Origin: Escherichia coli
Lineage (GTDB): Bacteria; Pseudomonadota; Gammaproteobacteria; Enterobacterales; Enterobacteriaceae
Strand: one strand, 5' to 3'
Length of the DNA: 64,000 nt
Assembly (NCBI RefSeq): GCF_044324875.1
Contig: NZ_CP172185.1
The notes below the pieces were generated by a model. That model was not told the origin of the DNA. It saw only the letters and a list, made by a program, of their open reading frames with translations, and did no database searches. Every line of letters starts with the position of its first letter. Position 1 is the first letter of the stretch. The position numbers were made by a program, and so were the translations under genes. Shown here in pieces: positions 36,117-37,445 of the stretch.

Positions 36117-37445
36117 ATGGCGGCTGTAAAAATTTCAGGCGTGCTGAGGGACGGAACCGGAAAACCGGTACCGGGATGCATTATTGAGCTGAAAGCGAAG
36201 AGAACCAGCGAGACAGTCATCGCCACGACAGTGGCTTATGGCATGCCGGAAGAGACGGGGAGTTACAGTATGGATGTGGAGCCAGGAATATACAGGGTGA
36301 CACTCAATACAGAAGGTTACCGTCCTTCGTATGTGGGAGATATCGTGGTCAGGGAGGATTCTTCACCGGGAACACTGAATAAATTTCTGATGGAGATGGA
36401 AGATGCTCCTTATTATCCGAAGGCGTTGTCAGAGCTGGAGGCTGTGGTGCAGTCCATACTGCACAGAGCAGAGTCCGCGGCATCTGAGGCGGAGGAAGCC
36501 CGGAAACGAGCTGCATCTGCCCGGGGACCACGAGGAGAGAAAGGGGATACCGGCGCTCGTGGTGAAAGAGGCATTACCGGGCCACAGGGGCCAAAAGGTG
36601 AAACAGGAGCACGTGGCCCGGCAGGACCACAGGGACCAAAAGGTGAAACAGGTGAACGCGGTCCGGCAGGTCCACAGGGACCAAAGGGCGATACAGGTGA
36701 ACGCGGCCCGGCAGGTCCACAGGGACCAAAAGGTGAAACAGGTGCACGTGGTCCGGAAGGTCCACAGGGAGCAAAAGGTGAAACAGGTGAACGCGGCCCG
36801 GCAGGTCCACAGGGAGCAAAGGGCGAAACAGGTGCACGTGGTCCGGAAGGCCCTCAGGGTCTGAAGGGAGAAAAGGGTGAGCGAGGAGAAAAAGGCCCTA
36901 AGGGGGATAAAGGAGATCCGGGAGGTCCACAGGGACCAAAAGGTGAAACAGGTGAACGTGGCCCGGCAGGTCCACAGGGACCAAAAGGTGAAACAGGTGA
37001 ACGTGGCCCGGCAGGTCCACAGGGACCAAAGGGCGATACAGGTGAACGCGGTCCGGCAGGTCCACAGGGGCCAAGAGGGTATACAGGTGAACGCGGGCCG
37101 ACAGGTCTACAGGGGCCAAGAGGGTATACAGGTGAACGCGGGCCGGCAGGTCCACAGGGGCCAAGAGGAGAAGCGGGGCGGCCAGCGAGCGTCGGAAGTG
37201 TTTATTCCGTGGGGTCTTATGTTCTGGGGATCATAGAACGAAATCATGAGATAACAAATACCCGTCAAATACCCGGGTATCGTATCAGACAGGCCGTTAT
37301 TGTGTCGTCGTCATCGGATAAACTTACAGATATCCGCTTTTTATTTGGCAATCCTATGCTTGGTACATGGATGTTATGCACAACTAACATGGCGGTGAAT
37401 AATATCAGTGGGACGATTTGGGGCCTGTTTCAGAGAATACTGTGA
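36117..37445 (+). CDS. Side tail fibre protein with collagen-like Gly-X-Y repeats
   Basis: N-terminus [32 protein letters not shown] typical of lambdoid tail-fibre N-terminal domain; long run of [16 protein letters not shown] triplets. Confidence 0.8.
36530..37170 (+). repeat. Collagen-like coding tandem repeats
   Basis: Repeated 27- to 45-nt units encoding G-X-Y triplets. Confidence 0.8.

Follow-up and report, generated by a model that had tools for sequence, protein, structure and literature searches.

The open reading frame (ORF) at positions 36117..37445 of the Escherichia coli DNA analyzed here, a window of 64,000 nt, very probably specifies the chain that trimerizes into the side (lateral) tail fibre of a lambda-like siphophage prophage, as judged from domain matches and gene order. 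The encoded fibre is a new, unusually short and knob-less allele of the known EPclC/P-Eib-type family of collagen-like Stf homologues, and the locus does not reveal a new kind of system. The original prediction, which had named the product a collagen-like side tail fibre, is upheld by the presence of the prophage tail fibre N-terminal domain PF08400, by 61% identity to the collar domain of gpStf, and by the location of the gene after J and before a DUF4376 gene.

The ORF, an EPclC-type Stf homologue, exists exactly where it had been predicted on the plus strand and is complete, with an ATG start and 442 codons followed by a stop, and a Shine-Dalgarno sequence GGAG (36108..36111, +) can be read 5 nt upstream of the ATG. 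The first part of the protein (aa 1-94, 36117..36398, +) is the collar or tail-attachment domain, delimited by matches to Ur-lambda gpStfN and Pfam, and is followed by a linker (EDAPYYPKA) with a short Ala/Glu/Ser-rich segment (aa 95-136, 36399..36524, +), which still lies inside the PF08400 match. Collagen block 1 (aa 137-271, 36525..36929, +) was delimited by counting its 45 Gly-X-Y triplets and by PF01391, and collagen block 2 (aa 273-356, 36933..37184, +) by counting its 28 triplets and by allele comparison. The C-terminal globular domain (aa 357-442, 37185..37442, +) is of the P-EibA (PfC2-like) type according to the motifs it has in common with its relatives.

In total, the translation contains 73 Gly-X-Y triplets (aa 137-356, nt 36525-37184). 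A run of more than 60 consecutive triplets had been claimed and has to be corrected, since the register break G-D-P-G-G-P-Q-G (aa 266-273, 36912..36935, +), a shift of one residue, splits the triplets into a longest unbroken run of 45 and a second run of 28. Elsewhere in the window, in all six frames, the longest Gly-X-Y run amounts to only 4 triplets, which excludes a chance origin of the runs in the fibre. Pro occupies the X position in 34 of the 73 triplets, and the region carries 18 charge pairs, comprising 14 K-G-E/D and 4 R-G-E. ORFs in other frames or on the opposite strand inside the repeats (e.g., 36403..36864 on the plus and 36574..36837 on the minus strand) were set aside as by-products of the periodic sequence. 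The single register break, together with the loss of the internal knob and the prophage defect described below, had been missed in the original prediction.

At the nucleotide level, the collagen region is built from a unit of 45 nt that encodes 15 residues. Tandem Repeats Finder reported this period twice, with 6.2 copies and 87% matches at 36582-36859, and with 5.7 copies and 90% matches at 36918-37172. The pairwise identity of eleven 45-nt units ranged from 73% to 100% with a mean of 87%, no difference separates the adjacent units at 36924-36968 and 36969-37013, and exact direct repeats in the collagen DNA reach at most 60 nt. The nucleotide repeats that had been described as near-identical are real, although the adjective is slightly generous for units with this average identity.

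The PF08400 match covers aa 3-133 with an E value of 2.7e-40 and a score of 137.9 bits against a cut-off of 26.6, and the Gly-X-Y region matches the collagen family PF01391 with an E value of 1.4e-37. Among the PHROG families, the best match is phrog_366, "tail fiber protein" (E 2.6e-103), and families termed "collagen like minor tail" and "tail protein" are matched as well. The identity to the collar domain of Ur-lambda gpStf (PDB 9E7M/9MGH) extends over 92 residues (aa 3-94, E 3.4e-30), and apart from animal collagens these chains are the informative match among solved structures, with BclA matching weakly. From aa 94 to the first Gly-X-Y triplet there are 42 residues only. By analogy with the linker and proximal coiled coil of Ur-lambda and with the prediction of Ghosh et al. 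for the end of PfN, the segment of aa 95-136 may form a short coiled coil of three chains and would then represent the end of PfN together with a minimal PCoil.

The last 86 residues of the fibre matched nothing in Pfam or PDB in sequence searches, and PF06820 (PfC) was not found either in the whole protein at E<=0.01 or in the C-terminal 92 aa at E<=1. Judged by position alone, aa 357-442 would be the trimerization and receptor-binding tip. An AlphaFold2 monomer model of the tip reached a pLDDT of 48 and a pTM of 0.33 and is unusable, the input alignment being too shallow.

The fibre gene is located in a lambda-type late region that includes terminase gpA, a lambda-family portal, an S49 protease and capsid protein E along with the tail genes. 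Upstream of the fibre, the tail module comprises V (Phage_TTP_12), the tape measure, L, a K-like ORF, I and J, among which the K-like ORF between L and I corresponds to a C40 peptidase by annotation in homologous prophages, and J (31313..34855) is by Pfam a full central-fibre gene of 1180 aa. J and the fibre gene are separated by three small accessory ORFs, one of which is a Cor-like lipoprotein according to weak matches below the curated cut-off. The prophage adjoins btsS in the E. coli chromosome.

The DUF4376 gene (37461..38036, +) has its start codon 16 nt past the fibre stop and encodes a protein of 191 aa, in which PF14301 matches aa 73-180 with an E value of 2e-20. The identity of this protein to ORF-191A/C/D/E of the P-Eib prophages amounts to 57-60%, and a sequence search against PDB returned no match. 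The DUF4376 members gp27 of Alteromonas phage V22 and gp9 of A5 are experimentally characterized tail-fibre chaperones that have been proposed to act as transient caps (PMC7289586, PMC10579305). The C-terminal DUF4376 domain and the location of the gene immediately downstream of the fibre were both found here, and by analogy the product is a probable tail-fibre chaperone or cap.

Collagen-like proteins of E. coli prophages were described and classified by Ghosh et al. in 2012, who assigned the layout PfN, PCoil, Col and PfC to EPclA and EPclB, with Pf2 and a second Col added in EPclB, and different C-termini to EPclC and EPclD, with PCoil often missing in EPclC (PMC3368898). According to Table 3 of the same work, EPclC has two collagen domains with a non-collagen segment between them, and its type member is the ORF-401-like protein of prophage P-EibA from ECOR-9 (AAF63232.1). 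The collagen domains of the prophage family commonly carry one G-X-P-G-G-P-X-G interruption, which was reported as conserved, and recombinant rEPclA was trimeric, gave the CD signature of collagen and melted at a Tm of 42 C (PMC3368898). ORF67 of Sp5 was localized at tail ends by immuno-EM (PMC5155283), and gp61 of phi24B was seen by cryo-EM to form lateral fibres. In Ur-lambda, twelve gpStf collar domains surround the gpV/gpM junction and are joined in threes via short linkers to give four trimeric fibres (PMC12617516).

Within this classification, the fibre belongs with EPclC. It aligned in BLASTP with the P-EibA ORF-401-like protein at 49% identity (aa 4-442 vs 3-479, E 1e-144), and the features of the class that were found include the PF08400 N-terminus, collagen with the break, a non-PfC C-terminus and homology to the type member. 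Like the P-EibA ORF-401-like protein, the fibre has PfN without a long PCoil, the G-X-P-G-G-P-X-G break and a C-terminus ending in LFQRI, and the gene order of J, fibre, ORF-191, eib (YadA-like) and a sigma-like HTH gene is the same as in P-EibA. The two collagen domains with a non-collagen segment between them were not found; whereas the P-EibA ORF-401-like protein and most close alleles have two separated collagen domains, the 442-aa fibre has one fused region of 220 residues. The missing internal segment is read as a secondary loss, which makes the fibre an atypical EPclC member. The 87-aa knob of the close alleles differs in turn from the internal segment of P-EibA.

The likeness to Ur-lambda Stf (PDB 9E7M/9MGH) lies in the gpStfN-like collar domain and in the placement of the gene, which follows J within a lambda-like tail module, and a common accessory role in speeding up adsorption is presumed. 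The T4 gp37-like C-terminus and Tfa (PF02413) of the lambda Stf type were not found: the tip matches nothing in Pfam or PDB, and DUF4376 takes the downstream position. Lambda Stf combines a coiled-coil or beta shaft with a T4 gp37-like, OmpC-binding tip and Tfa, whereas the fibre has a predicted collagen triple-helix shaft, an unrelated 86-aa tip and DUF4376 instead of Tfa. EPclA and EPclB (ECs2717, and ECs1228, which is Sp5 ORF67) as well as phi24B gp61 resemble the fibre in PfN, the collagen shaft and a small C-terminal globular domain, and their shaft triplets of the GP(Q/E)-GPK-G(D/E)T type are similar. However, these proteins carry a PCoil of ~110 aa rich in Ala/Ser/Glu and PfC (PF06820), neither of which was detected in the 442-aa fibre. 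They are experimentally backed as trimeric tail fibres. Streptococcus Scl1/Scl2, Legionella Lcl and Bacillus BclA also have hydroxyproline-free, charged (Gly-X-Y)n with strain-variable copy number, but their flanking domains differ, and the fibre has neither a signal peptide nor a cell-wall anchor.

Megablast of the fibre gene against 50,697 phage records gave no match, and tblastn of the C-terminal 92 aa against phages gave nothing at E<=1e-3; the link to real phages came only via the DUF4376 gene and via a full-length alignment of the fibre with that of the isolated phage PhiR12_5, at 48% identity. The exact 442-aa sequence is absent from a collection of 15 billion proteins. A phmmer search with the C-terminal domain against 1.84 billion representatives returned two true relatives only; four other weak matches were left unused, the three with printed sequences being unrelated repeat proteins. 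The C-terminal subtypes of the fibre, the P-EibA ORF-401-like protein and PhiR12_5 are only ~28% identical and have in common an early Y-x-[VI]-G-[ST]-[YF] motif, PG[TS]W, and LFQR at the terminus. A profile built from these three subtypes gave 21 matches, all of them "partial" or fragmentary proteins on short contigs, and all relatives of the C-terminal domain with a source name are from Escherichia.

The lineage of the fibre gene was found by megablast in 23 of 5,426 complete E. coli genomes, never at full length. From eleven of these 23 genomes, twelve alleles were extracted and compared with the present gene, together with one protein from a protein library (P0007). These thirteen other alleles encode 441-616 aa, the library protein (441 aa) having yet another arrangement, and the genomic alleles measure 1374, 1590, 1671, 1734, 1761, 1806, 1815 and 1851 nt vs 1329 nt here. 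All twelve genomic alleles differ from the 1329-nt gene by multiples of 9 nt, and their non-repeat flanks are almost identical; F1022 (L001), for instance, differs by a single substitution within the N-terminal 408 nt and by another one in the C-terminal part. The allele of AR_0085 is 98.7% identical, and its sole gaps of 90 and 315 nt correspond to 2 and 7 units of 45 nt. This strain comparison of copy number, which had been proposed together with the claim that the repeats are prone to slippage and recombination, has therefore borne that claim out, as length changes by whole multiples between near-identical flanks.

A non-collagen segment of 87 residues (ESARGQLLNGDL...WSEWKELGAQ) separates two collagen blocks in 10 of the 13 other alleles, namely in nine of the twelve genomic ones and in library protein P0007, and TUM1886 (457 aa) and AR_0085 (577 aa) resemble the 442-aa allele in being knob-less. 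The knob itself has no match in Pfam or PDB. The most instructive comparison is with LH50-c, whose prophage occupies the same chromosomal site beside btsS and encodes a DUF4376 protein that is 100% identical. Its fibre gene equals the 1329-nt gene plus a single in-frame block of 486 nt, with 24 substitutions, and the junction of the difference fits best at 37046-37048, inside a GDT-GER-GPA unit. A single 486-nt junction was also tried against L001 and L005 and fits with more mismatches (30 and 34, respectively) than against LH50-c.

The length of 486 nt equals 351 nt, the spacing of the homologous repeats that flank the knob, plus three times 45 nt, and we infer that the difference is the expected product of one in-register unequal crossover or slippage event. 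The 442-aa allele is best read as an LH50-c-like allele minus one 486-nt block, by which the knob was lost, and its collagen block 2 is a fusion of two blocks that are separate in most alleles. Loss of the knob is more likely than gain, because the wider family and most alleles have an internal segment, the direction being deduced from this distribution. LH50-c is not the direct parent of the 442-aa allele, given the 24 substitutions.

The prophage as a whole is damaged. Its tape-measure gene is split by an IS21-like element, which leaves a TMP_2 part (23710..24996) and a Tape_meas_lam_C part (27517..28935) on either side of IstA/IstB-like ORFs (24997..27415), whereas the tape-measure gene of LH50-c is annotated as a single CDS in an apparently intact prophage. 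An IS66-family element (38250..40691), flanked by the 8-bp target duplication GTTTCATG, has inserted 214 nt past the DUF4376 stop, between the DUF4376 gene and a YadA/Eib-like gene, and the latter contains an in-frame stop. The fibre and DUF4376 ORFs are both intact. Since the IS21-like element splits the tape-measure gene, the prophage is tail-defective, and with the tape measure interrupted the fibre therefore cannot mount on tails from its own prophage alone. A current function of the fibre in virions is doubtful, and the gene may have become a relic recently, or may serve other lambdoid phages as a recombination donor.

Several rival explanations concern what the ORF is and whether its length is genuine. 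A bacterial surface collagen-like adhesin of the Scl, Lcl or BclA type that serves the host cell could be suspected from the NCBIfam models SclB, Lcl and SclA, which match the Gly-X-Y region with E values from 1.9e-55 to 1.3e-38, and from the weak BclA match in PDB; but the scores fall well below the curated cut-offs (188.5 vs 325, 164.2 vs 500 and 133.7 vs 400 bits), on which ground this identity was rejected, only the collagen repeats are matched, the N-terminus is a Stf collar domain in which no hydrophobic signal-like stretch occurs, and the gene lies inside a tail module, so that an adhesin is extremely improbable. Only slightly less remote is another tail part, e.g., an extension of the central fibre or a tail decoration, for which collagen-like segments are known in several kinds of phage tail proteins and to which the "collagen like minor tail" and "tail protein" matches in PHROG would fit. 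A full J gene for the central fibre is nevertheless present upstream (31313..34855), and the N-terminal domain is specifically of the Stf collar type that is seen around the gpV/gpM junction, which speaks for a side fibre. It is also improbable, if somewhat less so, that the short allele is an assembly artefact in which repeats collapsed and the true gene encodes ~600 aa with a knob. The family is indeed routinely broken at the repeats in draft assemblies, with 21 of 21 tip relatives being partial or fragmentary, and the absence of the exact 442-aa sequence from the protein collection would agree with collapse. However, the 64 kb are contiguous through two multi-copy IS elements, which points to a finished assembly or one from long reads, the reading frame is kept, TUM1886 and AR_0085 are independent complete genomes that also have a knob-less single shaft, and a collapse must also delete 261 nt of unique knob sequence.

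A possibility that deserves more weight, though we still think it unlikely, is that the fibre gene is inert, a relic that happens to have stayed intact while its prophage decays and that no longer has a role in any particle. The split tape-measure gene, the IS66-family element downstream of DUF4376 and the in-frame stop in the neighbouring YadA/Eib-like gene all favour it. Against it, the fibre and DUF4376 ORFs are uninterrupted and the fibre has a good ribosome-binding site, the DUF4376 protein does not differ from its counterpart in the apparently intact syntenic prophage (100% identity), and few substitutions separate the gene from other alleles outside the repeats, so that any decay of the fibre gene would be recent. 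Moreover, the relic explanation addresses present activity and not gene identity, and the assignment as a side tail fibre subunit stands beside it.

Beyond the domain composition and the allelic series, which are observed directly, we infer how a side fibre of this kind would work. By homology with Ur-lambda, twelve collar domains would encircle the tail where the tube (gpV) meets gpM, with three chains per fibre and four fibres. The trimer would be brought into register by the short helical segment at aa ~102-136 and by the C-terminal domain, and the Gly-X-Y region would fold into a collagen triple helix of ~63 nm (220 residues x 0.286 nm). This triple helix would do without hydroxyproline and be stabilized by Pro in X and by the K-G-E/D and R-G-E charge pairs, while G-D-P-G-G-P-Q-G may serve as a flexible point or hinge. 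At the distal end, the 86-residue tip would bind a host surface structure, with the DUF4376 protein aiding folding or capping the tip. The fibre probably speeds reversible adsorption, as in Ur-lambda and T5, and would not trigger DNA ejection; phi24B gp61 has likewise been argued not to signal ejection.

The 45-nt repeats would allow the length of the shaft to evolve by in-register unequal recombination or slippage. In its present host prophage, the fibre would act only via recombination into another lambdoid phage or complementation by one. A bolder idea, which is quite unlikely, holds that collagen repeats are in-frame recombination linkers by which lambdoid phages, with dead prophages as donors, change fibre length, lose or acquire knobs, and exchange tips even between fibres that are otherwise unrelated. 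The knob-less allele of 442 aa would then be a "minimal" but functional fibre whose reach or host range is altered, stored as a cassette for other phages in a tail-dead prophage.

The locus offers a clean natural example in which near-identical flanks enclose a shaft whose alleles vary in the number of whole repeat units and in the presence of an 87-residue knob. As draft assemblies usually break inside the fibre gene, copy numbers should be trusted only from long reads. The fibre locus is an illustration, of modest interest, of repeat-driven remodelling of phage fibres: collagen-type repeats permit quick change of fibre length and domain content, and lateral fibres govern the adsorption speed and strain range of lambdoid phages, including those that carry Shiga toxin and Eib genes.

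The tail tape-measure gene of the lambda-like prophage is interrupted by an IS21-family element (23710-28935). Its TMP_2 N-terminal part (23710-24996) and its Tape_meas_lam_C part (27517-28935) are separated by an IstA-like ORF (24997-26643) with rve and Mu-transpos_C_2 domains and an overlapping IstB-like ORF (26417-27415), while the 23-nt terminal repeats of the element are present as multiple copies at approximately 24883-25004 and as inverted copies at approximately 27421-27502. Tail building by this prophage should be impossible.

The YadA/Eib-like trimeric autotransporter gene (41095-42375), the positional counterpart of the eib genes in the P-Eib prophages of E. 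coli, is also disrupted. An in-frame stop divides it into a stalk part (41095-41928) and a YadA_anchor part (41941-42375), and the corresponding codon in the homologue from E. coli strain LH50-c encodes Tyr; the two genes also differ in the head region. An IS66-family element (38250-40691, site region 38242-40699) is inserted with the DUF4376 gene on one side and the YadA-like gene on the other, bearing tnpC (38287-39825), tnpB (39875-40222) and tnpA (40219-40620), all on the minus strand. The element is bounded by 22-nt terminal inverted repeats starting with GTAAGCG and flanked by an 8-bp target duplication, GTTTCATG, and different IS66-family elements (ISCro1-like) were found near the same fibre locus in other strains.

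The right end of the prophage passes into the chromosome within 42437-63994. A sigma-70 region-4-like HTH gene (42437-42892) is followed by a btsS/btsR-type two-component pair (44013-45713 and 45665-46429), beyond which lie genes for one protein with a SWIM zinc finger, one with DUF5682 and a pair of giant DUF4132 proteins (55628-59272 and 59282-63043). The prophage thus adjoins btsS, as does that of strain LH50-c. Elsewhere in the prophage, an OmpC-family porin gene (5710-6813, minus strand; Porin_1, E 2.7e-127) recalls the Lc/NmpC porins of lambdoid phages, and the early/late junction region holds a tRNA-Met/tRNA-Lys pair (7412-7565, plus strand).

The central fibre gene J and the collagen-like side tail fibre gene are separated by three small ORFs of 86, 220 and 81 aa (34855-36044), in the place occupied by lom in phage lambda; Lom also takes this place in some sister prophages. 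The 220-aa product belongs to phrog_425, a membrane-associated moron, and the 81-aa product is a lipoprotein with similarity to the Cor exclusion protein (phrog_1119, E 8e-7), although its NCBIfam score of 28.4 bits is under the cut-off of 31. Directly 5' of the fibre gene ribosome-binding site, CCCGCAATTTTGCGGG makes up a terminator-like hairpin with a T-run behind it (36080-36105), past which late transcripts would need antitermination to enter the fibre gene.

In most alleles of the fibre (L001-L003, L005-L007, L009-L011 and L014 among the compared loci), a non-collagen knob of 87 residues, ESARGQLLNGDLNRLGRVTDQGDYYQPSDS...WSEWKELGAQ, is located between collagen blocks. The knob matched nothing in Pfam or PDB, and it is distinct from the Pf2 repeat of EPclB, a class of E. 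coli prophage collagen-like proteins. J (31313-34855) is internally repetitive too: a coiled-coil-like region (33847-34332) contains in-frame tandem repeats, with a 33-nt unit in 2.4 copies (97%) and a 174-nt unit in 1.9 copies (92%). This region is a second length-variable fibre segment within one tail module.
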